64,000 nucleotides of DNA from Methanobacteriota archaeon (lineage in GTDB: Archaea; Thermoplasmatota; Poseidoniia; Poseidoniales; Poseidoniaceae), in contig JAAZXA010000068.1 in assembly GCA_014240385.1 (NCBI GenBank), forward strand, positions 29,090-93,089, read 5' to 3'. Positions within the stretch are counted from its first letter, which is position 1. Every line of letters starts with the position of its first letter. Under the pieces are notes generated by a model, which was given only the letters and a program-made list of their open reading frames with translations, had not been told where the DNA came from and searched no databases. This document shows positions 2,909 through 59,263 of the stretch, piece by piece. The translations under genes and the position numbers were made by a program.

Positions 2909-3856
2909 TCATGTGGGTCCATTGGATTCTCCGTATGCGCCACTTGGTAGAGTCCATCCTCCCCTGGAACGAATCAATTGTCTTTCTTCAATCCATGCCT
3001 CGACGAGGTATGTGACGCCTTCGTATGGTGTTCCTTTCTCTACCAATTCTCGGACACTCACGCCTTGCTTGATTGTAAAACCGAATTCTTCTTCGTATTT
3101 CGCAATCTTCTCCACCATTGCTGGATAGAGTTCGGCGGCTGATGCCCATTGATTCGCATTTCCGAATATGCAGGTAATGCATGACAGTCTGCCCCATCCT
3201 AGCCAGTATGCTGGATGAGCCATGATTCTGTGTTTTTCCATGATTTCCCACACTTGTTTTTCTGTCCAATCGTGAATTGGCCTCCAATGATGCACCGTTC
3301 TCAATTTTCCATGACAACGGTGATTCTCGAAGGTGTTGTAGTTGGATCGTGATTTGCTTTCTCCTGCTCTCTCACCAGTCACAACAAGGGTCTTCTTGCC
3401 CTTGAATCGTTCTTGGTTGTTGATTGCTGCGCTCATCACATCGATTTTCAAATAGGCACTGCACCATCTTACCCGCAGATCTGCGGAGACTTGTGGAAAC
3501 TTGCGCCTTGTACCATCAGGGCCTTTACCCCCTGATGAATCGATTGTTCCGTCTGGGTTCTCCCAGAACACCTTGCCTGTCGGGCTGTTATCTCGTAGCA
3601 TCTCTTGCTCGAATCCGCCATCTCTCCAACTGAAGTAGATGGGAACATTGAATTCCTTTGCGAATTCCCGACAGTAATCTTCTGTTATCGGCCAATCCAT
3701 GAATGGATCGCTTCCTGGCGCACCATCAATGAGATGGTGCCACAGTTCTATTTTCTCTTTGTCAACACCGTTGTCTAGCAGGTCAAGGAAACAAGCTGTT
3801 GAGTCCTTTCCTCCGCTAAAGGCAACGATGATGTAATCGTATTCATTTAGGTTCAT
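2909..3856 (-). CDS. PAPS reductase-family PP-loop ATPase
   Basis: PM-ATG; N-terminal PP-loop IIVAFSGGKDSTACFL; C-terminal Cys pair LSCITCIFG typical of the phage PAPS-reductase-like family. Confidence 0.75.
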   Translation of the reverse strand: MNLNEYDYIIVAFSGGKDSTACFLDLLDNGVDKEKIELWHHLIDGAPGSDPFMDWPITEDYCREFAKEFNVPIYFSWRDGGFEQEMLRDNSPTGKVFWENPDGTIDSSGGKGPDGTRRKFPQVSADLRVRWCSAYLKIDVMSAAINNQERFKGKKTLVVTGERAGESKSRSNYNTFENHRCHGKLRTVHHWRPIHDWTEKQVWEIMEKHRIMAHPAYWLGWGRLSCITCIFGNANQWASAAELYPAMVEKIAKYEEEFGFTIKQGVSVRELVEKGTPYEGVTYLVEAWIEERQLIRSRGGWTLPSGAYGESNGPT

Positions 3857-5478: not shown

Positions 5479-6354
5479 TCAAACTGGAACCCATAGTTTC
5501 CTGCCATTAGATGAACAGGCTCGGACTAGAGAGGCTGCAGCACTTGGAGAATTGAAGGTCACATCTCGAGTAAATCGTAAATGTTTGCCGTCTTCAATTA
5601 TTGCTCCTTTTTCAAGGAGTTCTTTTCTCCATCTTTGCTCGCTTAACCTCCATGAGTCTCGGGGTTGCTTGTTTGCTGTAGATCCACGAAATACCACGAA
5701 CTTCTCGTTGCGGTATTGGCCTGTTGCTTCAACACCATTTGTTAGTGCAAGCTTCAGCATATCGTTGTCCCAGTATTCTTCTGATAGCCAGTTTCCCTTG
5801 TTATCCATGCATAGAACCTGCTTACCGCCGGCTCCTTCCCATGGACTGTTTGAAAATACGACTGATACTGACGGCCATCTTGACGCTCCGCCCTTAACAT
5901 GTGCAGGGCCGGTGAAGTCAAGTCTCCCTTTGAAGAAAACCAAATGCGAAGCATGAGGAAAAATCCAATTATGCCACATCAGGGTTTCACAGTTGGTAGG
6001 TCGGATTAGCAAGACGACGATTTCTGCATCGCCATTCTGCACAGAATCAAATGCCTTCTTTACGAACGGTTTGATTCCGTGGCTTGTTTTGCTGGAGTAT
6101 GGCGGGTTGCACCATACTATTCCTTCCCACTTCTGTTCTAGGGAGTCCATCTCAATATCGTAGTAATTCTCGCATAGGGCGTTTTCTTCGCTTGCAGCCG
6201 CATCCAATGTGAATGGGCCGAATCTGGCATTTAGAGAATCGAATATTGCTGTCGGAGTGCGCATGTCGTTTTCATCGCTATTCTTCTGCTTTCGATTCTT
6301 ATGCCAGGAGCGAACTTCCTCTGGCGTCATTTCAATTGATATCTTTTCAGACAT
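5479..6354 (-). CDS. DNA N6-adenine methyltransferase (phage Dam family) with extra C-terminal domain
   Basis: PM-ATG; FTLDAAASEENALCENYY...VWCNPPYS signature; C-terminal FNSPSAAASLVRACSSNGRKLW resembles a DUF4357-type domain (from memory). Confidence 0.8.
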   Translation of the reverse strand: MSEKISIEMTPEEVRSWHKNRKQKNSDENDMRTPTAIFDSLNARFGPFTLDAAASEENALCENYYDIEMDSLEQKWEGIVWCNPPYSSKTSHGIKPFVKKAFDSVQNGDAEIVVLLIRPTNCETLMWHNWIFPHASHLVFFKGRLDFTGPAHVKGGASRWPSVSVVFSNSPWEGAGGKQVLCMDNKGNWLSEEYWDNDMLKLALTNGVEATGQYRNEKFVVFRGSTANKQPRDSWRLSEQRWRKELLEKGAIIEDGKHLRFTRDVTFNSPSAAASLVRACSSNGRKLWVPV

Positions 6355-7246: not shown

Positions 7247-8152
7247 TCAGTCTCGGTAATTCGGGAACTTGTAGTACATAAGCCACCATGTTCCTCTAAT
7301 CTCATCGCCACAATTACTGCAGCATTGAGCCTTGCCGATACTTTTCTTCGTTTGTGTTCCGTAACAGTAATCGATTGGTTCTCCTGCTTCGCTACGGAAT
7401 AGTTTCTCGATAACTGACTTTGGAATATCATTTTCAGCCCATTTGAACACAAGTGTTCCATTGGTTTTCAATAATCTCCATAGTTCTCGGAATCCCTTAG
7501 CGAGGTTTTCTTGCCAATCATGTCCTAGATACCCATACTTCATTGTGATGAATCCTGTGCCTTTCTTTTTCACATGGGGTGGATCCCATACGATGTGATT
7601 GAAGGTCTCGTCATCAAATTGAGGTAAGTAGGTGAAGTCCCCCAGAATATCTGGTTTGCATTCCCATCCGGGTTGGGATGGTATAGGCACACCGTCTGGG
7701 TCTTTTCGAGGCATCATTACTCCTTGAGAGCCTTCGCCTTTGACTTCTATCCTTTGATCTAGGAACAATACATTCGGATTGTTTTTGTGGTTTTTGTGCC
7801 AAATCGACCTTGAACCTGCTGTTGCATCGAGGATCAATAATTCATTGGCAGTTGGTATAATGGTTGAGTTGATGGTGATTCTCCACCATCCTCTGTCTAA
7901 ACCATCTTTTTCCACATCTCCTTTTCCTTTCAAGGAACCAAGTGCTGTTCTTACTCGGTGTTTCCATTCGGGTTGATTAGTTCCACATGTGCAGCATTGG
8001 CTGCAGAGATAATCGTCATCGCATAGGTGAGGGAAAGAATCCTTCACATATTCGTAAATGACGGTTATTTTGTGGATTCCCTCTGGAACCACTTTCGTTA
8101 TTCCACCGTCCATTAGTTCCTTTTGCAATTTTCTGTGTTGCAATTGTTGCAT
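7247..8152 (-). CDS. DNA methyltransferase (N6-A/N4-C type) with Cys-rich N-terminal domain
   Basis: track ORF 7247..8209 trimmed to PM-ATG at 8152; motif I ILDATAGSRS and motif IV VWDPPH. Confidence 0.7.
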   Translation of the reverse strand: MQQLQHRKLQKELMDGGITKVVPEGIHKITVIYEYVKDSFPHLCDDDYLCSQCCTCGTNQPEWKHRVRTALGSLKGKGDVEKDGLDRGWWRITINSTIIPTANELLILDATAGSRSIWHKNHKNNPNVLFLDQRIEVKGEGSQGVMMPRKDPDGVPIPSQPGWECKPDILGDFTYLPQFDDETFNHIVWDPPHVKKKGTGFITMKYGYLGHDWQENLAKGFRELWRLLKTNGTLVFKWAENDIPKSVIEKLFRSEAGEPIDYCYGTQTKKSIGKAQCCSNCGDEIRGTWWLMYYKFPNYRD

Positions 8153-8162
8153 GAGCGGTTCC

Positions 8163-9002
8163 TCAGTTCCATCGCATTGCAAACCTGATAAGGTACTTGC
8201 GTTTTGCACATGAGGTCCTTATTGTAACAAACATAGTTCCATATCCGTTAGGATGGCCGTCGTTGACGGTTAGGTCTGTTGGACAATAGATTTCGATTCG
8301 GGCATTGTTCAATACCCAATTCGGCATTTTTGCTAATTGATCTAAGCGGTAAGCTTCTAGCGTCCCCGACATCTTAATTCCCCCTGGGTTATCAATGGGA
8401 ATAATGACGGTGTTGCTTTCCGATTCGCCTGCGGTTCTGCTTAATTTGAATTCGTTCTCATCAATTGCAAATTGTGTTTGCTGGAATGATTGTGCCAATG
8501 ATTTCAATTTCATCTTCAAGTTTTTGTCTTGGATAGTGAAATTCCTATTAGGCCCCCTCATCCTCTCGAGTTTGGGGTTCATCAAGGATTGAGATGAAAA
8601 ATCGTTGCGGGAATTTTTCCATTTGGAGTTGTTTCCCCAACGCATGGTGAATTCACCATCTTCATCTTCTAATTCAACGGTTGATTTGCCTGCAATTGAG
8701 GCTCCACTCATTCCTTTGAATGTTTTCCATTGCGTCTTGGAGAAATTTCTTCCAACTTCTCCATTGGCAATTTCGTGATTAGAATAGTCAATCCGGTTCA
8801 AACTGAGAAGTGGCATTATCTCTTCATTGCCTATACTCCACCATTCATGCTCCTGTGAATTGGGGTCAATTACAGGTGCCGTTGATGAAAGGAGGAGGCC
8901 TTGTTCACAAAATCCGATTCTAATCGAATCCTCGTTTCCAATTAAGCGATTGGCTATGCCAATTATCTGTCTATTTGCTGTAGCATCTAGTGTTGCTTTC
9001 AT
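8163..9002 (-). CDS. hypothetical protein (279 aa)
   Basis: track ORF; PM-ATG at 9002. Confidence 0.75.
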   Translation of the reverse strand: MKATLDATANRQIIGIANRLIGNEDSIRIGFCEQGLLLSSTAPVIDPNSQEHEWWSIGNEEIMPLLSLNRIDYSNHEIANGEVGRNFSKTQWKTFKGMSGASIAGKSTVELEDEDGEFTMRWGNNSKWKNSRNDFSSQSLMNPKLERMRGPNRNFTIQDKNLKMKLKSLAQSFQQTQFAIDENEFKLSRTAGESESNTVIIPIDNPGGIKMSGTLEAYRLDQLAKMPNWVLNNARIEIYCPTDLTVNDGHPNGYGTMFVTIRTSCAKRKYLIRFAMRWN

Positions 9003-9384: not shown

Positions 9385-9951
9385 CTATTGTTCAATCCAA
9401 TGCCCATCAGAATCGTATTCCTTTGGGTCAATGGTTGTCTTTTCATAGGCTTTGTGTGGGTTGATGTACCAGAATGATTCTTTGTTGATGTAAATCACGG
9501 CTTGTTCTAGTTGCCTTCCTTTCTCAGAGTTTCCTCGTAAGATTTCTTCCGGCCTCCAGGTATGTCCATGTTCATCAACCATAGAATCATCACCATGTTT
9601 CGAACGGTGGTCTGAAAGTAAATGGTAGCTTAGGTTCACGGCAAATTGCATTTCACTATGCCAACCTGCAGCGTTTGTGCTCCATCCTGCTTCTTTCATT
9701 CTTTCAATCAATTCGATGGTGACGAATTCTGGTAGTTTCTGTCCTTCACCAAAAGTTGGTGATTCCTTATCGTAATCTTTGTTGAAGTTAGGCCAAACAA
9801 TCTTGAGTCTGTTCAAAAACACAAGAGGGTCTCGGCAGTCCCCGCAACCTGTTACTGCACTGACGCTTCCAAGAGTATATCCGCAAGCGAATCCAATTTC
9901 TTCGTCAGTAAAGTTTTCTTTATCCATATAGTATCCTACTAGTAGTGGCAT
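9385..9951 (-). CDS. hypothetical protein (188 aa)
   Basis: track ORF; PM-ATG at 9951. Confidence 0.75.
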   Translation of the reverse strand: MPLLVGYYMDKENFTDEEIGFACGYTLGSVSAVTGCGDCRDPLVFLNRLKIVWPNFNKDYDKESPTFGEGQKLPEFVTIELIERMKEAGWSTNAAGWHSEMQFAVNLSYHLLSDHRSKHGDDSMVDEHGHTWRPEEILRGNSEKGRQLEQAVIYINKESFWYINPHKAYEKTTIDPKEYDSDGHWIEQ

Positions 9952-17198: not shown

Positions 17199-17954
17199 TT
17201 ATTCCATAGATGCAATCTTTTGCTCTATGGCTGTGTGCTTTCGAAAGATGCTTAGGCATCTAATTCGTGTGTTTGGGCCACAGGTGATTGATACCACACC
17301 ACATCTTGTTGCCCCTTTGGGCTGAATGTAAACCAAATGGTGTAAGGCGAGGAGATATCCTCCTGGCTTTAGCACCCTGATGGCTTCTTTGACCCATGAA
17401 TAGGGCTTGATGTATTCTGTTTTCCATAACTTGTCGGAGTAATCTATCTTGACTCCGTCTGTTGTTTGCATGTCGTAAGGTGGATCTGCAATAACCATGT
17501 CGTATGAATCAGTTTCAATAGGGAACTGTTGTCTGGCATCAGCTACGAATGTAGGATTATTCGCTTCGCTAATGTCCATTGTGTCTTCATTCTCCCTTCC
17601 TTGGATGCTTCCCGAGAATAGGTGTAATACCTTGGTTTCATCGGTGACTTCCATTAGGGCGTCTACTCTACGAAGGAACCCATTTGGGTAGGCTCCCTTG
17701 TATTTCGCCATTGGTCGGCCACAAGCCCACCCTAGACGGAGTGATTTTTCCGTCATGTGGGTCAATGAGGCGTCTTTCTGTTTCAATTTGTTGTAATGCC
17801 TAGCGATTCGATGAATCGTCCCTTTCGAAACTGTTTCACCAATCCTATCGCCTGCCATCTTAGCAGCATCGTCATACGAGTTATTGCTAAGATCGTTGAT
17901 TACTTGCATATGGTCTAGCAATTCAACCTTTCTTCCTTTCAATGTTAAGGACAT
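17199..17954 (-). CDS. DNA methyltransferase (N6-A/N4-C type) with N-terminal HTH
   Basis: PM-ATG; motif I VLHLFSGS, motif IV MVIADPPYD. Confidence 0.75.
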   Translation of the reverse strand: MSLTLKGRKVELLDHMQVINDLSNNSYDDAAKMAGDRIGETVSKGTIHRIARHYNKLKQKDASLTHMTEKSLRLGWACGRPMAKYKGAYPNGFLRRVDALMEVTDETKVLHLFSGSIQGRENEDTMDISEANNPTFVADARQQFPIETDSYDMVIADPPYDMQTTDGVKIDYSDKLWKTEYIKPYSWVKEAIRVLKPGGYLLALHHLVYIQPKGATRCGVVSITCGPNTRIRCLSIFRKHTAIEQKIASME

Positions 17955-29592: not shown

Positions 29593-30459
29593 TTATGTCC
29601 AAAGACTCCTCGTCATCCTCCATATCCCTGCTTTTGCGAAGTCAGGGTGTTTTTCTATCCCTACTGCGTGTCGCCCTGTGAGCATCGCAGCCAATCCTAG
29701 GCTGTATGATCCTGCAAACGGGTCGAGCACTACATCTCCAGGATAAGTGGAGAAGCGAATAAGTTCAATCAAGAGTTCAACAGGCTTTTCTGTCTGGTGA
29801 ACCTTCTTCCTACCCATCATTCTAGAGTGGGTTTGAACATCTGCTATGCTGTTATTGATTCTTCTGCGCTTCCCTTTCGAGAAGAACAGAATTAGTTCGT
29901 GTCGTGGCCGACCATTGTAGCCAAGTGATATGACTTTCTTATCCCATACCCATTGGCTATTGAATGTGAAACCTGCGGCTTCTGCAATCTTGATTTGATT
30001 GTAGATGTAGTCGTAGGTGTCGTGCTTTGCTGCAGGCATGAAGCAAAAGAAGTGTCCATTGGGCTTCAAGACCCTAAGCATCTCCGAATACAAATCCGAA
30101 TCGATGTCTTTGGTCTCAAAATCCCATCCCTTCTTGAGATTCCTTGCTCGGGTAGTTCCCGTCTGCATTTGAGCATTCAAGATTGAATACGGAGGATCTG
30201 TGATGATAGCATCGAAGCTGTTATCTTCTAACTTTGCTAATTCATCCCAACTGTCTCCTTCAATCAAAGCGCATTGTGTGTCGCCAACTGTGGCGATGTA
30301 TATGCCTCTTGATACTCTGCGAAAGCACTTGTCTATGTTTTCATTGAGTCTTCCACGAATTGTTGTTTCCTTTTCATCAGGCAATGCTTCGTATATCTCC
30401 TTGAGATTCGATTCATTGTCTGCTAGAAATTCAACCAATCTTTCTTTCAATGTTTTCAT
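29593..30459 (-). CDS. DNA methyltransferase (beta-class N4-C/N6-A, DPPY) with N-terminal wHTH
   Basis: track ORF 29593..30480 trimmed to PM-ATG at 30459; IITDPPYS then C-terminal VVLDPFAGSYS. Confidence 0.8.
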   Translation of the reverse strand: MKTLKERLVEFLADNESNLKEIYEALPDEKETTIRGRLNENIDKCFRRVSRGIYIATVGDTQCALIEGDSWDELAKLEDNSFDAIITDPPYSILNAQMQTGTTRARNLKKGWDFETKDIDSDLYSEMLRVLKPNGHFFCFMPAAKHDTYDYIYNQIKIAEAAGFTFNSQWVWDKKVISLGYNGRPRHELILFFSKGKRRRINNSIADVQTHSRMMGRKKVHQTEKPVELLIELIRFSTYPGDVVLDPFAGSYSLGLAAMLTGRHAVGIEKHPDFAKAGIWRMTRSLWT

Positions 30460-30480
30460 GAGCGGTTCAGTTTGGGTCAA

Positions 30481-40400: not shown

Positions 40401-40778
40401 TTAGTCCTCAGCGATTGTGGGATCTTGAAGCGAATCATTTGCTTCTGCTGTTCCCTTTGCTGGGGACAGAACTTTGGACTCATTGAAGGTCCAACCTAAT
40501 TCCATCATCATGGATAGAATCCATTCAGGTGCTTGACTCCAGTTGCCATGGAACTTGATGTTGCACATGTTGGCGAATTCAATTATCTCGCTTTCTAATG
40601 TGCTTTGTGTTTTGCCATGGGTTGCTGCTGTCGCTGCAATTGCCTGATTAATGGATGCTCCAGATGCTTCTACTTCGAGCAATACTGTGTCCCAAAGGGT
40701 CATCATTGCTGAGTATAGGCTCAGGTATATTCGTTCTGCCATCGTGCTTGTTTGCTTGCTAACTTGTGTGTGTTGCAT
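40401..40778 (-). CDS. hypothetical protein (125 aa)
   Basis: track ORF; start context ACCCCACATG preceded by hairpin GGAAGAC-AAA-GTCTTCC and repeat module copy 1. Confidence 0.7.
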   Translation of the reverse strand: MQHTQVSKQTSTMAERIYLSLYSAMMTLWDTVLLEVEASGASINQAIAATAATHGKTQSTLESEIIEFANMCNIKFHGNWSQAPEWILSMMMELGWTFNESKVLSPAKGTAEANDSLQDPTIAED

Positions 40779-40800
40779 GTGGGGTATGGGAAGACTTTGT

Positions 40801-40841
40801 CTTCCTCATTAGCATAGGTCATAGGGGCCGTAGGCCCTGAC
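40801..40841 (-). repeat. 41-nt promoter-like module, copy 1
   Basis: CTTCCTCATTAGCATAGGTCATAGGGGCCGTAGGCCCTGAC; contains the GGGCC-GTA-GGCCC hairpin and, in minus sense, CCCTATGACC. Confidence 0.8.
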
Positions 40842-41034
40842 CGTTTTAGTCATGTTTTGGTGCTAAGTTTTATTCTACCTCTCGATAGAAACGGCGCAAA
40901 GCAACCTTTGGACTCCTCCCGTAAAGGGTGGTGTGTGTGGTGTTACGGGTGTCCATGGGTCTCTCTCGCCAATAAAGCGAGTTGTAGGCGTACTCCAACG
41001 CCTCGTTGTTCGTCAATGATTTGACTACACCTCA

Positions 41035-41168
41035 TGGTGGACCGTGCTGGATTCGAACCAGCGGCCTCCTAAGACAGACAACTTCGACTCCTTCCGTCCT
41101 GCCCGGGACAGTTCGGTTTTTGTCTTATTCTGTTTCTTAGGCGCTCTTCCTGACTGAGCTAACGGCCC
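41035..41168 (-). tRNA. tRNA-like gene with a 57-nt insertion in the anticodon loop and encoded CCA; identity unresolved
   Basis: reverse complement folds as GGGCCGT/TA/GCTC-AGTCAGGAA-GAGC/G/CCTAA-[64 nt]-TTAGG/AGGCC/GCTGG-TTCGAAT-CCAGC/ACGGTCC/A/CCA. Confidence 0.75.
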
Positions 41169-41193
41169 GTAACGGTGTTTTGAGGAAGTATTT

Positions 41194-41234
41194 CTTCCTC
41201 ATTGGTATAGGTCATAGGGGCCGTAGGCCCTGAC
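41194..41234 (-). repeat. 41-nt promoter-like module, copy 2 (upstream of the tRNA)
   Basis: CTTCCTCATTGGTATAGGTCATAGGGGCCGTAGGCCCTGAC; 3 mismatches to copy 1; followed in minus sense by hairpin GAGGAAG-AAATA-CTTCCTC. Confidence 0.8.
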
Positions 41235-41376
41235 CCATTTGTGTGTGGTTTTTGTGTGTTTGTGAGCGGTTTAGCCTGATTTCCAATCCATACTGACGAA
41301 CTTCCTCGTAAACCAATTCTGGCCTTTCGGCACTCTCGGTTTGCGTAAGAGAGCGAGATCGTTCCCCGTGAGGGGC

Positions 41377-41646
41377 TTAGATCTTCGTAGCTCGCCTTCT
41401 GTTCACCTGGAACCATTGCTGGTACAGGTGCTCTCCAATAACTACTGCTGCAGGGTCGAGCATCGGGTTTCCGCTTGCTAGTGGACGGTCAAAAGACCAA
41501 TCCATGTGCTTACGGTGTTGCCGATATTGCTGTCGCCTGTAACTCAAATAGGGGTGTCCTTCACCGTCAAAGCGGTGTCGGTAACGATATTTTCTTATTT
41601 TTCCCCTCTTCCCAGCATTGGAAATCGTTTGTTGGCTAATTTGCAT
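41377..41646 (-). CDS. possible very basic protein (89 aa)
   Basis: track ORF only; Arg/Tyr/Gln-rich; no PM or SD seen. Confidence 0.4.
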   Translation of the reverse strand: MQISQQTISNAGKRGKIRKYRYRHRFDGEGHPYLSYRRQQYRQHRKHMDWSFDRPLASGNPMLDPAAVVIGEHLYQQWFQVNRRRATKI

Positions 41647-42044
41647 TTATCATACAAGCCCTGAACTACCTCATGTCCGTGGGGCTAATCCACATTGTCC
41701 TTTCGGAGCGTAGAATCACCTAAGCAGCAACCAGCCGCTTTTGCTTCGTAACATATCGGACCAACTGACTAATGCCAGTAGTGATTAAGTCACCAACGAG
41801 GTCTTTTCGTCAATGTTACGGTTTTCGGTGGACTACATGGGAAAGGAGCGATGATAGTCGCTACTTTCTCTCAATGTATATCCGTTAGCCGAGAAGAGGC
41901 ACCAAAAGGTGCGGGTATCTCTATTTCTCGACCCGGTGTCTCGGTGAAGTCCTCTTTCGAGGGATCCTCCGCCTTATCCCCTATCTCTAGGGTTTAGCAG
42001 ATACTTCGTGTAGGCCCTTGAGCCAACCGAGAGAGGGCATTCCT

Positions 42045-42084
42045 GTCCTCATTAGATGAGGTCATAGGAGCCCTAGGCCTTGCC
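42045..42084 (-). repeat. 41-nt promoter-like module, degenerate copy 3
   Basis: GTCCTCATTAGATGAGGTCATAGGAGCCCTAGGCCTTGCC; faces the ORF-free 41650-42040 stretch. Confidence 0.6.
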
Positions 42085-42097
42085 GTAGCAAGGTGGT

Positions 42098-42563
42098 GTG
42101 TGGTATAATTTCTTCGTGGTTTTAGGCCACAGGAGGTATATGAATAGGCCCTTTTACTCTCTTTCCTTTGGATCTAGAGGCCTCAAGCTGCTACTCTTGG
42201 CCTCTTTCTCTAGAAAGAGTGTATTTTGGGTATTTCTTCATGTTCTCCACTGTATTGTGCCACAGGGGGTATATGAATAGGCCACTTGCAGTCAATTTCA
42301 AGATCGCTGAAAGGGCATGATTAGCTTCTCATGCCTTCGCTTTCAATTATTGCTTCAATATGGGTATTTCTTCATGTTCTCCACTGTATTGTGCCACAGG
42401 GGGTATATGAATAGGCCATATTTCGGTAACATCTCCAGATCTCTCCTTCGAAAGCTACTCCTGGCATGGCCGTAGGCCAAACAGGGTGAAATATGGGTAT
42501 TTCTTCATGTTCTCCACTGTATTGTGCCACAGGTGTTATTTGGCAAGGCCGTTTCCGTTAACC
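42098..42563 (+). promoter_or_regulatory. four tandem promoter-like repeats at about 133-bp phasing; the last drives the TFB-like gene
   Basis: TGGGTATTTCTTCATGTTCTCCACTGTATTGTGCCACAGGGGGTATATGAATAGGCC at 42227 and 42360; degenerate copy at 42098; copy at 42493 ends GGTGTTATTTGGCAAGGCC, 28 nt before ATG 42564. Confidence 0.75.
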
Positions 42564-43694
42564 ATGGCGAGTAATGACGATACGGCCAATCAGATGGGGG
42601 CGACTGCTGATTTTTCGTCAATATCGTCTGTCCTTTGTCCTGCATTCGAACAGCCGCCTGGGTGTGCCGTCTCCCTTGCCAAGCAACAAAACTTTGATTC
42701 TTTGTCAGTCGACTCTATGACTGGGAGGGCGTATTGCGGATCATGCGGCGTGGAATTCGTTGTTGACCGTTATCAGGTTAGTCATGAGCAGAAAAAGAGT
42801 GATGATGGGATAGAAACCTACGGATCTGTTCTCTCCAAGTCTGGGAAGCAACGGAATAGGGAACAATCCTTTGACCGCCTGGGCTATCTTTGTATTAGCA
42901 AGTTGGACTTATCTCAAAGTGTGTTGGCACAAGCTACCCGCTACCTGTACGATATGATGGAAGGTGGAGCCGCTAAAGGAGGTCGGGGTTTTCCCCAACT
43001 CGAAGTGGTTGCGGCTTATGTGGCAGGTAGAATGCATAATCAATCCCTTACTCTCGAACATGTTGTTAATATCCATCGAGATTGGATTACAGAAGAAGGG
43101 GAGTTCAAATCGATAAAGGCGGCATCTATGAAATCAGTTAATCGATTGCTGCAGAATATGACTAGGGAAAACATTCTGCCTTACCCCCGCCCTTCTGCAG
43201 ATGATATCATTGGTTCTAATTCGTGGTGCTTGGCTAATCTAGATGAAGTCATTATTCAGAATGCTAAGGAGTTGTCTAATTGCGGAGTCCAAGGTTCCCC
43301 CGATTCTATTGCTGCAGCATCGGTGATGGTGGCTGCGAAGAATAAGCGTGTTGTGAAACCCGGAGATGACTTATCGCGGCCACGAACACAAATGGCCGGA
43401 GAGGAAGATGGGCAGCGTTTAACGCTCGAAGTGATTGCCAAATTGTTTCCTGGCACTACTGCTAGAACTGTAAGGCGAAGAATGAAAGAGATTAGGGATG
43501 TTTTGGAACTTAGGCTACCTCTAACACGAGAGCAAGTAGAGGTTCTTGAAAATCCTGATCCCCGCAAGGTGCGTGTCCGTAATACTGTTGAGGAAGTATT
43601 CAGTCAATTGGATTCGGAATTGGAAGGAAAGATACCATTGACTTCTAAGGATGTAGCAATTCTACGAAAATTGAAAGATTCAAACAAGAGGTAA
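42564..43694 (+). CDS. TFB/TFIIB-like transcription factor (376 aa)
   Basis: track ORF 42486..43694 trimmed to MASNDD. N-terminal Cys pairs (CPAF..GC, CGSCG). Two cyclin-like repeats: RGFPQLEVVAAYVAGRMHNQSLTLEHV and GSPDSIAAASVMVAA...LTLEVIAKLFPGTTARTVRRRMKEI. Confidence 0.7.
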   Translation: MASNDDTANQMGATADFSSISSVLCPAFEQPPGCAVSLAKQQNFDSLSVDSMTGRAYCGSCGVEFVVDRYQVSHEQKKSDDGIETYGSVLSKSGKQRNREQSFDRLGYLCISKLDLSQSVLAQATRYLYDMMEGGAAKGGRGFPQLEVVAAYVAGRMHNQSLTLEHVVNIHRDWITEEGEFKSIKAASMKSVNRLLQNMTRENILPYPRPSADDIIGSNSWCLANLDEVIIQNAKELSNCGVQGSPDSIAAASVMVAAKNKRVVKPGDDLSRPRTQMAGEEDGQRLTLEVIAKLFPGTTARTVRRRMKEIRDVLELRLPLTREQVEVLENPDPRKVRVRNTVEEVFSQLDSELEGKIPLTSKDVAILRKLKDSNKR

Positions 43695-50446: not shown

Positions 50447-51211
50447 ATGACGCTAAGCGGATTCATTGCAATGCCTCGAAAACCGGGGAAAACAAAGATT
50501 GGGCAGATCCTCAAGAATATTGGATTCAAGGATAAGGGAGCAGCAGGAAATATGTGGGTCTTTGGTAAGACTCGGTTCCGTGTAGATGTGGTTGATTTTA
50601 GGGATGATTTGAGAGATCATGACGCTGAATGGGTTGAAGAAGTTGGATGGGATGATAATTGGGCCGTCCGTATTGCTGTCAATCATTCTAACAGAACAGA
50701 TGAAAATTACATCTTGTGGCATTCGATTCTAGTCATAGCCGCTGAGTGCTTAGGCGTTAGAGAAATTTGGTTAGATGGCGGCACAGGCATTCCACAGCAA
50801 CCGTACACACTTCGAGAGTTGTTTCCTGAATTGAAATCTGATGAAGGAGAAGACTTGATTGAAGAATCCGAAGCCGCCCCTGTTCTAGTCGACAAGGCAG
50901 AAGTCTTGGAGCTTCCAGATATTGAAACACCTGCTGAGCCTGTTTTGGTTCCATCTGAGCCTGAGCCTGAGCCTGAGCCTGAACCTGTGCCTGAGCCTCA
51001 AACAGAATCGTCCGAAGAGGATTACGATTCCTGGGGATGGGATGAGGATGAGGATGAGGATGAGGATGAGGATGAGGATGAGGACGATTCATGGAATGAG
51101 GATGAGGATGAGGATGAGGATGAGGATGAGGACGAGGATGAATCCGAAGAAGAGAATGAATCCGAAGAGAATGAATCCGAAGAAGGTGTTGATGTAATCA
51201 CTGAATGGTGA
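50447..51211 (+). CDS. protein with (EP)n and (DE)n low-complexity C-terminal half (254 aa)
   Basis: track ORF 50396..51211 trimmed to the ATG set by box P4. Confidence 0.7.
   Translation: MTLSGFIAMPRKPGKTKIGQILKNIGFKDKGAAGNMWVFGKTRFRVDVVDFRDDLRDHDAEWVEEVGWDDNWAVRIAVNHSNRTDENYILWHSILVIAAECLGVREIWLDGGTGIPQQPYTLRELFPELKSDEGEDLIEESEAAPVLVDKAEVLELPDIETPAEPVLVPSEPEPEPEPEPVPEPQTESSEEDYDSWGWDEDEDEDEDEDEDEDDSWNEDEDEDEDEDEDEDESEEENESEENESEEGVDVITEW
50957..50998 (+). repeat. hexanucleotide tandem repeat (GAGCCT)x7, imperfect
   Basis: read directly; encodes EPEPEPEPEPVPEP. Confidence 0.9.
51041..51142 (+). repeat. two runs of (GATGAG)n hexanucleotide repeat
   Basis: 51041-51085 and 51096-51142; encode DEDEDE... 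tracts. Confidence 0.9.
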
Positions 51212-51948
51212 GTTCTTTGGTTGAAGGGGGTGCAATGGCGTGGGGAGGCCTCCTTTACCTCAAGCACCTTTGGGATTCTTGGAAAAGTCACCGAATAGGA
51301 ATATATGGCCTGTGGGCGTGTGGTAAGACCACCCTGAATCGTTATTTGAATACCTCTGGGGATCTCGAAGAAGATACTGCCCGTATGACTAGCACCGCTC
51401 ACCCCTATGATAAGAAGAAGAAGCAGTATGTTCCACCAAATGCAACCCGCAAGAGAATTCATGTTTTGTCCGAAGCAAATCAGTCATTCCGTAGAACCAT
51501 TCTCTCGTCTGATATTGGAGGCCAGTCCGAATATTTCAATCTCTGGGTTCGAGATTTGGTGTTGCGTGATGTTGAAGTAATCATCTATCTGGTTGATTCA
51601 AGGGATGATCCAGATGGGCTTCAAGAGGCAACATTTCGAGACTTTACGAGAATTATTGCCGAGAGAGATTTCCGTTTTACTGAACGAAAATTGAGGAAAA
51701 AGGCCAGAAATTATCAGCCGAAGGTGGTAGCCCTTGTTGCCAATAAATCGGACCTTTGGCTCAATCCAGACGAACGGGCGTATTACGAGGGGTCTGGCAT
51801 TGGCAGGCATCCAATTTTTGATGCTTACAGGCCGCACTTGGTACGGCTACAGAGAGCCGGTATTCCTACTTTGAAGCGAAGTATTTCAGCCCTCCATGGG
51901 TATGATGTGGAGCGATTAATATGGGATTGCTTGAAGGCGAAGTCGTGA
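51205..51948 (+). CDS. Arf/Arl/Sar-like small GTPase (247 aa; alternative start ATG 51235)
   Basis: G1 GLWACGKTT, G3 DIGGQSEYFNLW...IIYLVDSRD, G4 ANKSD, G5 SAL; hydrophobic N-terminal helix MAWGGLLYLKHLWDSW, as in Arf. Confidence 0.75.
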   Translation: MVSSLVEGGAMAWGGLLYLKHLWDSWKSHRIGIYGLWACGKTTLNRYLNTSGDLEEDTARMTSTAHPYDKKKKQYVPPNATRKRIHVLSEANQSFRRTILSSDIGGQSEYFNLWVRDLVLRDVEVIIYLVDSRDDPDGLQEATFRDFTRIIAERDFRFTERKLRKKARNYQPKVVALVANKSDLWLNPDERAYYEGSGIGRHPIFDAYRPHLVRLQRAGIPTLKRSISALHGYDVERLIWDCLKAKS

Positions 51949-55200: not shown

Positions 55201-55297
55201 ATGAAAGTGAAAGTGTTGAATATGAATTGAGCCCCGGCGATACTGAGGGTATATGAACTATGCATAGTGGAAGAATTTCCTTGCGGCAGTAATGAAG

Positions 55298-55371
55298 CGG
55301 CCCCACGGGGATTTGAACCCCGGTTACTGGTTCCGCAAACCAGTGTGATATCCAAGCTACACTATGGGGCC
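55298..55371 (-). tRNA. tRNA-Arg (anticodon GCG), no encoded CCA
   Basis: GGCCCCA/TA/GTGT..TCAC/A/CTGGT-TTGCGGA-ACCAG/TAAC/CGGGG-TTCAAAT-CCCCG/TGGGGCC/G. Confidence 0.85.
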
Positions 55372-57563: not shown

Positions 57564-58385
57564 CTACTCTTCCTCAGTCGCTTGATTGTTTTGGAAAGGA
57601 ATGGTTATTTCAGGTTCGGCCACAAGGGTTGGATGTATGCCTTCTACTACCTCTCCATCAACATCCATCATGCCATAGATGTACAAATTCTTTTTCTCGA
57701 GAATGTTCTTGATTGTCTGTCTGTGCCAGACCACCTTTCCCTTCCTTGTTTTGATGGCTTTTGTTGCTAGTTCATTGATTATGTCGGATATTGTGTAGCC
57801 TTGAGTTTCCATATTGAAGATTATGTTTACTACGCTTGCTTCTTCTTCGTTTGGTACAAGCAAACCTTTCTTGGATCTCTTTCCTGTATCATCGATTTCA
57901 ATATTCATGTCATACCCATAGGGGGGTGTTCCAAGCCAAATTCCTTTCAACTTTGCACCTGCCATGCCCATTTTGACTCTTTCTTTGATTTCATTTCGCC
58001 TTAGTTCAGCCAATGCTGCGAATACTATGTAGAAGAAGCGGCCTTGAACCGTTGTAGTGTCCATTTGTTCAGAGATACATGCAATATGGCAGTTGTTTGT
58101 ATCAATTGTGTTTACAAATTCAATTGCGTTCATGGTGTTGCGATGAAACCGGTCTAGTTTGTAACCAACTACTGCGTCCCATTCTTCGCCCATGGTTTCC
58201 ATCATCGCACCATATCCAGGCCTGTTGTCTGTGAATCCACCTGATCCTGTATCTGAGTAGCTTCGAATGTAAGTCCAACCTTGCATTTCGATGTAGTTCT
58301 GGCAAAGCCTCAACTGTTCCTCTAGGCTGTGGCCTTTTGCTTCTTGCTTCTCGGTTGAAACTCTTGTGTAGATTATTGCTCGCAT
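57564..58385 (-). CDS. serine recombinase (resolvase/invertase catalytic domain plus C-terminal extension)
   Basis: MRAIIYTRVSTEKQ...GHSLEEQ...YSDTGSGG...RPGY; canonical N-terminal Ser-recombinase motifs. Confidence 0.85.
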   Translation of the reverse strand: MRAIIYTRVSTEKQEAKGHSLEEQLRLCQNYIEMQGWTYIRSYSDTGSGGFTDNRPGYGAMMETMGEEWDAVVGYKLDRFHRNTMNAIEFVNTIDTNNCHIACISEQMDTTTVQGRFFYIVFAALAELRRNEIKERVKMGMAGAKLKGIWLGTPPYGYDMNIEIDDTGKRSKKGLLVPNEEEASVVNIIFNMETQGYTISDIINELATKAIKTRKGKVVWHRQTIKNILEKKNLYIYGMMDVDGEVVEGIHPTLVAEPEITIPFQNNQATEEE

Positions 58386-58703: not shown

Positions 58704-59082
58704 GGTTCGTTCACCATAACCTTGGTTAATTGTCGCTATGAAGGGTCAGTCGTATTACACCTTCGCCCTGTGAACCGAATTATCACCCGTTTAACACGCT
58801 ATTCCCCCCCACATAGGGGGTATGTTGACGATGAAGGAGTTCCTTTGCGCTCAACCCCCCCACCTTCATAGTCAAAAACGGGTATTTTTCACCTCATAAC
58901 TTCTCATTGAATCGCAAGTCCTCACATCACATCTCAATTGTAAGGTTGGGGTGGAATGAACCTCATGTGGTTCTGCGCTTCTAACCTTCGTTCACAGGCA
59001 ATTCCAATTCCTATCTACACATTAGGGGTGAATTACCTACTTCGTGCAACAAGGGATCTAGATGAAACAATAGGAAACAAGG

Positions 59083-59156
59083 CGGGTCATGCAGGGTTCG
59101 AACCTGCGGCCTACTGGTTAAGAGCCAGTCGCTCTACCTGACTAAGCTAATGACCC
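59083..59156 (-). tRNA. tRNA-Lys (anticodon CUU)
   Basis: GGGTCAT/TA/GCTT-AGTCAGGTA-GAGC/G/ACTGG-CTCTTAA-CCAGT/AGGCC/GCAGG-TTCGAAC-CCTGC/ATGACCC/G. Confidence 0.9.
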
Positions 59157-59263
59157 AGTTGTTAGTGTGGTGTCCGACTTCGCAGAAGTCATAGGGTTAG
59201 TATGGTGTGAGGACCGTTGTTCGCTCCATCGGACGGACCAAGCGAAGTGTTTTAGTCGGATAA

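Follow-up and report, generated by a model that had tools for sequence, protein, structure and literature searches.

What might a phased array of promoter-like repeats be doing directly in front of a gene for a putative basal transcription factor? Archaeal viruses and plasmids are thought to depend on the TBP and TFB of their hosts, and the way in which they reprogramme transcription is largely obscure. The locus considered here lies in a 64,000-nt stretch of DNA (the window), and the carrier of the array is probably an archaeal virus or mobile element. The element combines a TFIIB-like protein of its own with a multiplied promoter-like sequence that has an unusual invariant upstream element and stands directly before the gene. 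An earlier, sequence-only reading had taken three of the repeats for promoters of short hairpin RNAs and the fourth for the promoter of the TFB-like gene, with decoy promoters and origin iterons as alternatives. Our own best explanation, to which we would give somewhat less than an even chance, is that the array consists of tandem small-RNA transcription units having their promoter architecture in common with the TFB-like gene.

Four phased repeats and the TFB-like gene

The four direct repeats are real: an invariant GCCACAGG core occurs at 42126, 42259, 42393 and 42526, so that the cores are spaced by 133, 134 and 133 nt. A repeat search of the window returned a 95-nt family at 42190, 42324 and 42457 (spacing 134 and 133 nt) and a 46-nt family that includes a degenerate first copy at 42110 (spacing 133, 134 and 133 nt). 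The 24-mer TTCTCCACTGTATTGTGCCACAGG occurs three times against 0.00 expected from shuffles, and GGTATATGAATAGGCC three times against 0.39. The coordinates reported previously are off by 1 nt at most: 42227 and 42361 (42360 had been given) are the starts of the 57-nt unit, the fourth copy, with its different box TATTTGGC, starts at 42494 (rather than 42493) and the degenerate copy placed at 42098 is present at about 42098–42151. The TATA motifs are found at 42137, 42270 and 42404 and TATTTGGC at 42537; the last box, thought to lie 28 nt before the ATG at 42564, is indeed 27–28 nt away from it.

All four cassettes are oriented along the + strand. Cassette 1 (42098–42151), the upstream half of which is degenerate, is made up of GCCACAGG (42126–42133), the triplet AGG, the octamer TATATGAA (42137–42144) and GGCC (42147–42150). 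Cassette 2 (42227–42283) carries an imperfect palindrome (ATGTTC..TGTAT) together with GCCACAGG (42259–42266), GGG, TATATGAA (42270–42277) and GGCC (42280–42283), and cassette 3 (42361–42417; GCCACAGG at 42393–42400, TATATGAA at 42404–42411) is identical to it over 57 nt. Cassette 4 (42494–42551), the predicted promoter of the TFB-like gene, has the same upstream half and the same GCCACAGG (42526–42533). Its triplet, TGT, is not purine-rich, and its box is TATTTGGC (42537–42544), from which 19 bp lead to the A of the ATG.

The gene itself (42564–43694, + strand) encodes 376 amino acids and is predicted to be leaderless, no Shine-Dalgarno-like sequence being found upstream of its ATG. This ATG is the true start, as the upstream extensions proposed by gene callers in relatives are not conserved and distant homologues start at a methionine aligned with it. 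The product had been called TFB-like, and this stands: its predicted structure has a TFIIB-like fold, with TFIIB, TFB and Brf as top Foldseek matches (E = 1.7e-7, at TM-scores of only 0.3–0.5 and a mean pLDDT of 67), and Pfam gives a weak TFIIB match (21.7 bits, below the cut-off of 23.6). Members of the TFB/TFIIB family have two cyclin-fold repeats and a zinc ribbon at the N terminus. In the protein of the window, residues C25, C34, C58 and C61 are invariant among relatives, the N-terminal region being poorly modelled, and a sequence search with the protein found no match in the PDB. Thaumarchaeal integrative-conjugative elements are also mobile elements with their own TFIIB-family protein; however, their TFB genes lie upstream of parB in conjugative elements and no promoter array has been described for them (PMC6563490). 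The protein of the window is, moreover, very divergent.

Conservation and promoter-like anatomy of the cassettes

The array is present before the TFB-like gene in 15 of the 15 loci in which a relative of the gene was recovered with sufficient sequence upstream. These loci come from independent marine metagenome assemblies, L134 and L136 being near-identical copies of one element, and the proteins are 44–76% identical. Since the array precedes every recovered relative, we consider it a conserved feature. Across relatives it has from two to five copies with a period of 120–135 bp: five copies in L001, L128–L133, L002, L136/L134 and L137, four in L003 and L124, and two in L135. No relatives were found among INPHARED phages or GTDB genomes. 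When viral contigs were scanned with a DNA pattern of three spaced cores, nearly all of the 120 matches turned out to be collagen-like coding repeats and only one, L009, was real; a stricter core-plus-box pattern recovered the same single IMG/VR contig.

In an ungapped alignment of 41 distinct copies, GCCACAGG is invariant save for one CCATAGG. The octamer that follows is A/T-rich in all 41 and is fixed at index 10–17 from the core, while its sequence drifts (TATATGAA, TATAAAAA, TACATAAA, TAAATAAA, TTGATAAA and TATTTCAA are found) and is not specific. Between core and octamer, most non-terminal copies have the triplet AGG, AAG, GGG or GAG, and a few have TAA or AAC; these few and the gene-proximal copies, which have CCT, TGT, TGC or CGT, are less purine-rich. 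In every relative the A of the ATG falls at index 37–38 from the core, that is, 19–20 bp past the octamer, although the bases between them differ. Both the promoter-like character of the repeats and the role of the last one as the promoter of a leaderless mRNA, proposed previously, are supported by this anatomy: a BRE-like GCCACAGG with its purine triplet, a drifting TATA-like octamer and then GGCC, all on the + strand, and a box-to-ATG distance that is fixed in all relatives. On the + strand, each cassette can be read as a core promoter of archaeal type, to which TBP and TFB would be expected to bind.

A useful reference is provided by the promoters of M. jannaschii, in which the BRE is purine-rich, extends over 9–10 nt and has a conserved C at -7, and in which 19–24 bp separate the TATA box from the Inr (PMC2602779). 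The core of the cassettes likewise puts a C at -7, with the reservation that the promoter grammar of the host may be another one. [quoted passage not shown] Their box-to-start distance is 19–24 bp (PMC2602779), and the gene-proximal copy of the array fits a leaderless mRNA. There are also differences: the extended element is an invariant GCCACAGG in the array and MRCCGAAAAG in M. jannaschii (PMC2602779), the octamers of the array (e.g. TATATGAA and TACATAAA) are weaker than the boxes of M. jannaschii stable-RNA promoters and, unlike these, the promoter is repeated two to five times head to tail with a period of 120–135 bp.

The same repeats could instead be iterons for a sequence-specific DNA-binding protein at an origin, a partition (centromere-like) or a packaging site, with the core and palindrome bound co-operatively and the A/T box being either incidental or a site that melts easily. 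The centromeres of plasmids (F sopC and R1 parC, for example) are direct-repeat arrays beside or overlapping a promoter, and their iterons are 11–43 bp long, tightly phased and sequence-specific. The present array resembles them in that its direct repeats precede the adjacent gene and extend over that gene's promoter, a layout suited to autoregulation by the encoded DNA-binding protein. It also lies where leftward genes give way to rightward ones, close to the minimum of the cumulative GC skew (which is confounded with gene orientation); its cores are all in one orientation and related core-bearing elements, termed R2, occur at 40818, 41211 and 42061. Furthermore, repeat halves are identical inside one genome and different between genomes, as would be the case for sites co-evolving with their cognate protein. 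Nonetheless, we find iterons very improbable and, in particular, disfavour the origin iterons proposed earlier. There is no AT-rich unwinding region: from 40500 to 43000, each bin of 100 bp has a GC content of 41–55%. The period varies between 120 and 135 bp, out of helical register, and the octamer stays rich in A/T while its sequence drifts as that of a TATA box does. The fixed box-to-ATG distance favours a promoter as well. In contrast to parC and sopC, the array contains an A/T box that drifts and long segments that vary; among its neighbours, no gene for ParA, ParB or ParR was recognised, nor one for an initiator or a terminase.

Taken as tandem small-RNA units, the array might work as follows. 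The 57-nt repeat would be a core promoter comprising the imperfect palindrome, an extended BRE (GCCACAGG plus three mostly purine bases), an 8-bp TATA box and GGCC. We infer that TBP and TFB, either the host's or the element's own, would load RNA polymerase at each repeat, that transcription would start near 42164, 42297 and 42431, some 19–24 bp beyond the box, and that the RNA, whatever its function, would extend across the inter-repeat segment and end at roughly the next repeat, with a length of about 65–85 nt. For the upstream units these start sites, like the RNA ends, are predictions, the positions 19–24 bp past the box having been checked for Y-R dinucleotides. The fourth repeat, with its different proximal BRE and weaker box, would start the leaderless TFB-like mRNA at ATG 42564. 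Units would be gained and lost by unequal recombination, and gene conversion would homogenise the promoter halves in any one genome. That the promoters are shared and yet distinct suggests that the units are co-regulated with, or by, the TFB-like factor. It is tempting to speculate further that the array is a private switch, in which the element's own divergent TFB paralogue recognises the GCCACAGG extended BRE and the cassettes are its targets, making either fast-evolving small RNAs directed against the host or competitors or a self-limiting sink or roadblock that times expression of the factor. The GCCACAGG-type element with its flanking elements recurs in the window only in this hub. We regard such a switch as unlikely; if true, archaea would have in it their first example of a promoter class and regulatory array linked to a basal initiation factor that a virus or plasmid encodes.

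The segments between the repeats

If the upstream cassettes are active, one would look for their products in the three inter-repeat segments of the + strand. The first (42164–42226; predicted start 42164–42169) contains GATC at 42171, AGCT at 42186, the hairpin AGAGGCC/GGCCTCT at 42176–42205 and a terminator-like stem with a T-rich tail at 42202–42229. The second (42297–42360; predicted start 42297–42302) contains GATC at 42302, AGCT at 42323 and the hairpin GGCATGA/TCATGCC at 42314–42335, and the third (42431–42493; predicted start 42431–42436) GATC at 42438, AGCT at 42453 and the hairpin TGGCC-GTA-GGCCA at 42467–42479. The three hairpins named in the sequence-only reading are therefore all present. 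Its description of the roughly 75 nt between repeats as unique applies to the hairpins, which are unit-specific, but not fully to the segments, since all three share GATC, AGCT and an (A/T)AT(A/T)TGGG end. Across relatives, GATC, AGCT and ...ATATGG motifs are kept in every spacer, and AGCT is present in all three units of the window despite being four-fold depleted in the window as a whole.

The claim that the upstream units drive discrete hairpin RNAs fares less well. In the clade of the window, the hairpins are conserved neither in place nor in sequence, and the predicted 76–77-nt + strand transcripts are no stabler than dinucleotide shuffles (z = -0.34, -0.98 and +0.03). Averaged over 40 units, z is -0.64 on the + strand and -0.84 on the - strand. 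Between close strains of this clade the inter-repeat parts are 0.86–0.93 identical, compared with 0.87–0.98 for third codon positions and 0.95–0.99 for the repeats, and among the window, L001 and L002 they mostly stay within about 2–3 sd of the random-alignment baseline. No run of at least five T was seen by eye on the + strand after the units; polymerases are therefore likely to continue into the following cassette and on into the gene. The best hairpin of three short units (units 2 and 3 of L001 and unit 3 of L002) spans the predicted start region.

These observations bring to the fore a cis-acting promoter/BRE array, in which the upstream cassettes act as DNA sites that set or auto-limit expression of the TFB-like gene. 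The decoy promoters of the sequence-only reading, too, are kept as a rival. Strong extended-BRE/TATA sites could soak up TBP/TFB or the element's own TFB-like protein, read-through polymerases could occlude the weaker cassette 4, and 5'-extended read-through mRNAs could be untranslatable as leaderless messages. Repeats that are conserved far better than segments, segments that change about as fast as synonymous sites and have only weak structure, and the lack of visible oligo-T terminators would all be in keeping with this, as would an ATG not preceded by a Shine-Dalgarno-like sequence. The gene-proximal copy always differs from the other copies in proximal BRE and box, as expected of two competing promoter classes, and the change in copy number from two to five among close relatives is reminiscent of a dosage dial. 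We nevertheless judge this explanation rather unlikely. Sites alone do not account for the GATC, AGCT and ...ATATGG motifs in every spacer in the face of genome-wide AGCT depletion, nor for the selection seen in the distant clade (see below), and we know of no archaeal case in which a promoter array serves as a sink for factors.

In the distant clade (L136/L124/L135/L137), the inter-repeat segments behave differently. Those of L136 and L124 are 0.66–0.71 identical against a shuffled baseline of 0.48 +/- 0.03, while four-fold sites between the two are saturated (0.27 identity). Little is conserved downstream of the box until the predicted start, where conservation returns with GAGCTTCRAACAGATCYACA. 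The predicted transcribed part appears clearly to be under purifying selection in this clade. It is this selection, together with conservation resuming at the predicted start, that leaves a functional RNA as the best single reading. The consensus fold of the distant clade is better on the + strand (-13.3 kcal/mol) than on the - strand (-7.1 kcal/mol) and one-sided changes are wobble-compatible only on the + strand; its 22 pairs are 94.9% paired, with covariation not above shuffles (82/500).

Another possibility is that transcripts are laid out differently, either as units on the - strand, with a promoter immediately to the left of each core and the A/T boxes, in reverse complement, serving as T-rich terminators, or as one long + transcript that is a structured leader or a precursor cut as in ToxI or CRISPR. 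The - strand folds of the window units are more stable than dinucleotide shuffles (z = -2.46, -2.32 and -1.66), one ortholog group, G1, folds better on this strand (-36.1 against -25.9 kcal/mol on +), and the boxes in reverse complement read TTTTTATAC or CTTTAT. R2 elements with the same core lie 40–50 nt upstream of leftward genes, and a promoter left of the core seems to hold for those before the leftward tRNA and large RNA. Since + strand terminators are not evident, long + transcripts are plausible too. However, the consensus fold is better on + in four of the five ortholog groups as well as in the distant clade. The purine-rich element is on the + side of the box, and in archaea the BRE sets promoter orientation (PMC2602779). 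The fixed ATG distance also anchors the gene-proximal copy as a + promoter, and a leader would leave the constant 19–20 bp unexplained. As to a precursor, the units are not identical, motifs recur across their spacers, and no gene in the neighbourhood was recognised as cas, Nop-domain or endoribonuclease. Altogether, we consider these layouts improbable.

Several other possibilities were tried and not adopted. The Box 1 palindrome, considered as a covarying RNA hairpin, is 88.6% paired, no better than shuffles (142/500), and was left as an imperfect palindrome. A universal closing stem round the units gave -8.3 kcal/mol for cognate and -7.2 kcal/mol for non-cognate pairs, a marginal difference (p = 0.02) in non-independent data, and the stem is absent from several units. 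Pairing of the A/T box with downstream sequence (alifold, G2/G3) was dropped, as the box changes from TATATGAA to TATAAAAA or TATAAGAA without compensation. A coding repeat or micropeptides do not fit periods of 133/134 and 121–123 bp, which are not multiples of three; nor are the small ORFs conserved, and many copies (TATAAAAA, TACATAAA) lack the ATG of TATATGAA. A search with Rfam 15 over 42090–42570 gave chance-level matches only (E = 3.8 and 6.5), none at gathering score. Antisense matches of the three segments elsewhere in the window were chance-level 11–13-mers, and inspection by eye for C/D-box, H/ACA or anti-Shine-Dalgarno mimicry showed no consistent boxes in the units.

Related repeat systems and the surrounding hub

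Tandem sibling small-RNA genes are represented in bacteria by LhrC1-4 of Listeria and PrrF1/2 of Pseudomonas. Another example is the sibling sRNAs of N. meningitidis (PMC5362039). Such siblings resemble the array in being head-to-tail paralogous units of about 100–130 bp, each with its own promoter (promoter-like in the array), varying in copy number among relatives, homogenised in some lineages and diverged in others. In contrast, bacterial siblings keep their seed and a Rho-independent terminator, whereas the array conserves mostly the promoter, without a clear terminator. Neither a target nor a seed was found for the array, its promoters are of archaeal type, and it resides on a mobile element beside a basal transcription factor gene. 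Should the cassettes be active, they would possibly be the first small-RNA genes known to lie in tandem on a mobile element of archaea, a case of homogenised promoter halves with diverging transcribed parts, and a compact testable system for BRE-specific promoter recognition in archaea.

ToxI, CRISPR and TIGR arrays are likewise direct repeats beside a protein gene, with less conserved segments between them, on viruses or mobile elements. Their repeats are of other sizes: 36 nt in ToxI and about 24–48 nt in CRISPR, compared with 57 nt here. TIGR arrays have edge and loop repeats of 8–12 nt, dual spacers of 9 nt, box C/D motifs and a Tas gene with a Nop domain (PMC12045711). They also have one leader promoter and a dedicated nuclease, whereas the array has a promoter-like element in each 57-nt repeat; unlike theirs, its spacers are homologous to each other and vertically inherited, and its neighbour gene is TFIIB-like. 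We rejected a CRISPR array in view of the repeat of about 57 nt, spacers that share motifs and are orthologous between strains, and the lack of Cas domains in the scanned neighbours. A ToxI-like array of a type III toxin-antitoxin system, in which near-identical short repeats under one promoter precede an endoribonuclease toxin gene, was rejected on account of the 120–135-bp units, which differ from each other in the window, and the TFIIB-like character of the downstream gene. A TIGR array (PMC12045711) differs in unit size and layout, and no C/D boxes by eye and no Nop domain in the scanned neighbours were found.

The region is a hub of RNA genes: a tRNA and an unclassified structured RNA of about 770 nt neighbour the array, which we count in favour of small-RNA units. 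The element as a whole looks unusual too; ACGT is completely absent from it, and ACCGCTC stands directly before the ATG in 82 of its genes. No TATA signal was found upstream of these 82 genes, which therefore offer no reference promoter model. The left bound of the array is R2 element number 3 (42043–42092, not assigned to a strand), which consists of the palindrome CCTCAT-TAG-ATGAGG, the core GTCATAGG and a GC-rich stem, followed by a conserved hairpin, CCTTGC-CGTA-GCAAGG. The palindrome-plus-core layout is common to R2 and the cassettes.

Promoter-like cassettes before the TFB-like gene

Four direct copies of a repeat occupy positions 42098-42563 of the window, immediately before the TFB-like gene. 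A repeat search of the window grouped 42190, 42324 and 42457 in a 95-nt family (spacing 134 and 133); in a further family, of 46 nt, the degenerate first copy is included as well, at 42110, and the spacing is 133, 134 and 133. The TATA-like end GGTATATGAATAGGCC occurs three times versus 0.39 expected. A repeat-derived 24-mer also occurs three times, far above the 0.00 expected from shuffles, so the repeats noticed in the sequence-only reading are real, and the coordinates given for them were correct to within one base. On the + strand, copies of the 57-nt unit begin at 42227 and 42361 and the fourth copy at 42494; the invariant core GCCACAGG lies at 42126, 42259, 42393 and 42526, TATA at 42137, 42270 and 42404, and the box of the fourth copy, TATTTGGC, at 42537, followed by the ATG of the gene at 42564. 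Copies 2-4 agree at every base over 41-57 nt, and their upstream half is of the type usual for the gene-proximal copy in relatives.

The downstream ORF is, judging by its predicted fold, TFIIB-like, in agreement with what had been proposed for it. Its Pfam TFIIB match is below the cut-off (E = 2e-4) and a profile search of PDB sequences gave no match; the solved structures best matching its AlphaFold model (mean pLDDT 67, core about 85) are TFIIB, archaeal TFB and Brf chains (E = 1.7e-7). Protein alignment places the true start at ATG 42564. Public gene calls P0001-P0004 begin 17-26 codons too early, at a GTG or ATG within the last repeat, and these over-long starts translate the repeat itself (..HRPYLARP.., window 42486-42563) into extensions that are not conserved.

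Homologues of the TFB-like protein form two groups, of ~75% and ~45% identity, and the array directly precedes the gene in every recovered metagenomic locus with enough upstream DNA; therefore it is not an assembly artefact. Since both protein groups have it, the array predates their split. Five copies are found in L001 and L128-L133 (spacing 135, 122-124, 120-122 and 122-123 bp), in L002 (131, 132, 123 and 121 bp), in L136 (121-122 bp; identical with L009, and forming with L134 one element in near-identical copies) and in L137 (120-123 bp). There are four in L003 (135, 121 and 123 bp) and L124 (123 bp) and two in L135 (123 bp). One IMG/VR contig of 127.6 kb is related; no relatives were found in GTDB genomes or among the phages and archaeal viruses of GenBank.

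The 41 distinct repeat copies align without gaps. From 5' to 3' they consist of an (A/T)AT(A/T)TGG-type motif, an imperfect palindrome ATGYTN-N4-NARCAT followed by three or four bases, the invariant core GCCACAGG (one exception, CCATAGG), a triplet that in most non-terminal copies reads AGG, AAG, GGG or GAG and in a few TAA or AAC, an octamer, and two or three bases before GGCC (GACC or AGCC in the distant group, L136/L124/L135/L137). The octamer is A/T-rich in all copies and its sequence varies (TATATGAA, TATAAAAA, TACATAAA, TAAATAAA, TTGATAAA, TACTTAAA, TATTTCAA). Read from sequence, this pattern would be expected for a TFB recognition element (BRE) plus TATA box and not for a sequence-specific iteron or an RNA helix. 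Among promoters of Methanocaldococcus jannaschii, the strongest TBP/TFB binders combine a TWTATATA box with a purine-rich BRE that extends over 9-10 nt and has C conserved at -7; 19-24 bp separate their box from the initiator (PMC2602779). The array core likewise has C at -7, with the proviso that the grammar of M. jannaschii may not be that of the array's host.

In every array the gene-proximal copy is unlike the others: its proximal triplet is CCT, TGT, TGC, CGT or GGT and its box TATTTGGC, TATTTGCC, TATATGAC, TATATCAC or TTTATCAC. Because the proximal BRE thus differs between the two cassette classes, the sequences suggest that one class may answer to a host TFB and the other to a TFB of the element. 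In every relative the start-codon A has index 37-38 counted from the core, which puts it 19-20 bp past the box and bears out the leaderless-mRNA spacing claimed earlier for the last box. The bases from box to ATG are not conserved despite this constant distance. The fixed distance, together with the lack of a Shine-Dalgarno-like sequence before ATG 42564, gives a leaderless-mRNA geometry, which fixes the + orientation at least for the gene-proximal copy. The constant distance also speaks against an origin or partition iteron array, as do the TATA-like behavior of the octamer, the varying repeat period and the absence of an AT-rich unwinding stretch; GC skew does shift near the array, but gene orientation shifts there too, and we consider an origin or partition array very unlikely.

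We propose that the array is a + strand tandem of promoter cassettes of the archaeal BRE/TATA type. The last cassette would yield the leaderless mRNA of the TFB-like gene, and those upstream would initiate short non-coding transcripts across the inter-repeat segments. Unequal recombination would change the copy number, as it varies among close relatives (2, 4 and 5 in the L135, L124 and L137 lineage), and gene conversion would homogenize the promoter halves. The parts are of known kinds, namely archaeal core promoters, bacterial tandem paralogous small-RNA genes and mobile-element TFIIB homologues. Archaeal mobile elements with TFIIB homologues have already been reported (PMC6563490). In the literature we found neither a reiterated promoter cassette described before a mobile-element TFB gene nor small-RNA units described in tandem on any virus or plasmid of archaea.

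Inter-repeat segments as candidate RNAs

It is tempting to regard the upstream cassettes as small-RNA genes, a prediction that we hold tentatively and at somewhat below even confidence. The segments are 64-78 nt long; all contain GATC, most contain AGCT and their ends share a conserved ...GTRWAATATGG-type motif, so they are not unrelated spacers. In the window AGCT is four-fold depleted (60 observed, 236 expected) and GATC 1.6-fold. The 19-24-bp rule predicts starts at 42164-42169, 42297-42302 and 42431-42436, and many units have a pyrimidine-purine step in this start window, often in or beside GATC. CRISPR, ToxI-like and TIGR arrays were rejected as candidates for mismatches in unit size, repeat identity, spacer behavior and neighboring genes.

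The upstream units had been thought to drive hairpin RNAs. The three named hairpins exist (42176-42205, 42314-42335 and 42467-42479) and the repeats are promoter-like, but on the + strand the transcripts fold no better than dinucleotide shuffles (z = -0.34, -0.98 and +0.03); on the - strand they fold somewhat better (z = -2.46, -2.32 and -1.66). Averaged over 40 distinct units, z is -0.64 on the + strand and -0.84 on the -, no family in Rfam matches the array, and the segments are unremarkable as RNAs. A closing-stem test of cognate versus non-cognate ends was marginal, and the palindrome shows no covariation above shuffles. Box-to-downstream pairings proposed by alifold do not persist when the box changes between orthologs.

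Rates of change differ between clades. Among close strains of the L001 group, repeats are 0.95-0.99 identical and segments 0.86-0.93, much like third codon positions of the adjacent gene (0.87-0.98). Between the window, L001 and L002, where four-fold sites are saturated (0.33-0.44), best-matching segments reach 0.51-0.65 identity, mostly within 2-3 sd of the shuffled 0.49 +/- 0.03. This neutral-like drift in the window's clade, where folding is also weak and oligo-T terminators are lacking, would suit an array that acts in cis, by titrating factors or interfering with cassette 4, or at least weakly constrained RNAs. The cis-acting array is a possibility that we rate as unlikely. The distant clade shows selection on the transcribed part, which favors a functional RNA. 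Units there are near-identical within each array. Between L136 and L124, segments are 0.66-0.71 identical (four-fold sites 0.27, baseline 0.48 +/- 0.03); the stretch from box to predicted start is poorly conserved, and conservation returns exactly at the predicted start, with GAGCTTCRAACAGATCYACA. The distant-clade consensus folds at -13.3 kcal/mol on the + strand versus -7.1 on the -, and the L136/L124 fold has six pairs with one-sided changes, wobble-compatible on +; covariation in this clade, of two lineages only, is not significant. Four of five ortholog groups in the window's clade also fold better on the + strand.

The non-coding hub and a second repeat family

The array sits in a ~1.8-kb non-coding hub that separates a leftward block of ORFs (from about 41.6 kb to 1) from a rightward one (42564 to about 53.4 kb). 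A second repeat, R2 (TTCYTCCTCATT..ATAGGTCATAGGGGCCGTAGGCCCTGACC), was found by repeat search at 40800-40846, 41193-41240 and 42043-42085, and in relatives at 8171, 8570 and 9438 of L001 and at 2921 and 3044 of L131, the latter two 123 bp apart. Like the array cassettes it carries a palindrome and a core, in R2 the related GTCATAGG, but it has a GC-rich stem instead of the A/T box. Each copy lies 40-50 nt upstream of a leftward gene. This position of a related core, the T-rich tracts that the boxes become on the - strand and the slightly better - strand folding in the window would fit a reading of the array on that strand. Against such a reading or, as another option, one long + leader or precursor speak the side on which purines flank the box, the anchoring of the gene-proximal copy and the tendency of folds elsewhere towards +, and we judge the two, even taken together, quite unlikely.

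R2 copies flank differing cargo: other sequence in L001 and an intron-bearing tRNA gene in the window (41038-41168, - strand, Rfam 48.9 bits), whose anticodon loop carries an insert of 64 nt and whose CCA end is encoded; ARAGORN in bacterial mode missed this gene. This tRNA and the TFB-like gene point to an archaeal host of the element. Between about 41275 and the third R2 copy lies a predicted structured RNA of ~770 nt (about 41275-42035, - strand), with 75-85% nucleotide identity even where the TFB-like protein is only 45% identical. RNAalifold on six sequences predicts 187 pairs, of which 63 show compensatory changes; GNRA loops (GAAA/GCAA) occur on the - strand, and an Rfam search gave no match. 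In it ACAGAAGGCGAGCUA pairs with GAGGAAGUUCGUC, and by eye the two may resemble CR-V and CR-I of RNase P, but in swapped order.

Two hairpins were also seen near R2. One, between the third copy and the first cassette (42077-42092), is conserved, and its changes are compensatory: the window has CCTTGC-CGTA-GCAAGG, L001 has CCTTGC-CTAA-GCAAGG and L136 (about 9425-9446) has CCTGCA-ACAGTG-TGCAGG. The other, GAGCCCCCCGAAGGCCGAAACCTTCGGAGGGGC, is small but strong and lies ~45 nt right of an R2 copy in relatives (L001 8220-8260, L131 3080-3120, and a variant at about 8040-8080 of L136); it is absent from the window.

Gene content and sequence biases of the window

The window is dense with short ORFs, most of whose proteins have no family match. 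Recognizable ones are DNA methyltransferases, glycosyltransferases, a serine recombinase, PAPS-reductase-like proteins and an Arf-family small GTPase-like ORF (51205-51948, + strand, Pfam E = 1.6e-5); matches to virion proteins are weak.

A heptamer, ACCGCTC, is present 93 times on the - strand and three times on the + (window 159-48008). An ATG follows it immediately in 82 cases, usually just past the previous stop codon (- strand examples at 3856, 9002, 21271, 36765 and 39071). It is unlike a Shine-Dalgarno sequence, and these genes have no TATA-like signal upstream. Relatives have ACCGCTC and the variant ACCACTC, the latter in L136. The heptamer may serve a polycistronic block of ~40 kb, either in translation, as an unusual signal for initiation or re-initiation, or in RNA processing.

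Short palindromes are strongly avoided throughout the 64 kb, with ACGT absent (236 expected) and CGCG at 15 of 164, TATA at 72 of 340, GTAC at 87 of 236 and TTAA at 125 of 340 expected. There are at least four DNA methyltransferase genes (5479-6354, 7247-8209, 17199-17954 and 29593-30480). The serine recombinase, a large one, is encoded at 57564-58385 (- strand) between tRNA-Arg (55297-55371) and tRNA-Lys (59081-59156), and a core-like element, GTCATAGGGTTAGTATGG, lies beside the tRNA-Lys gene at 59188.
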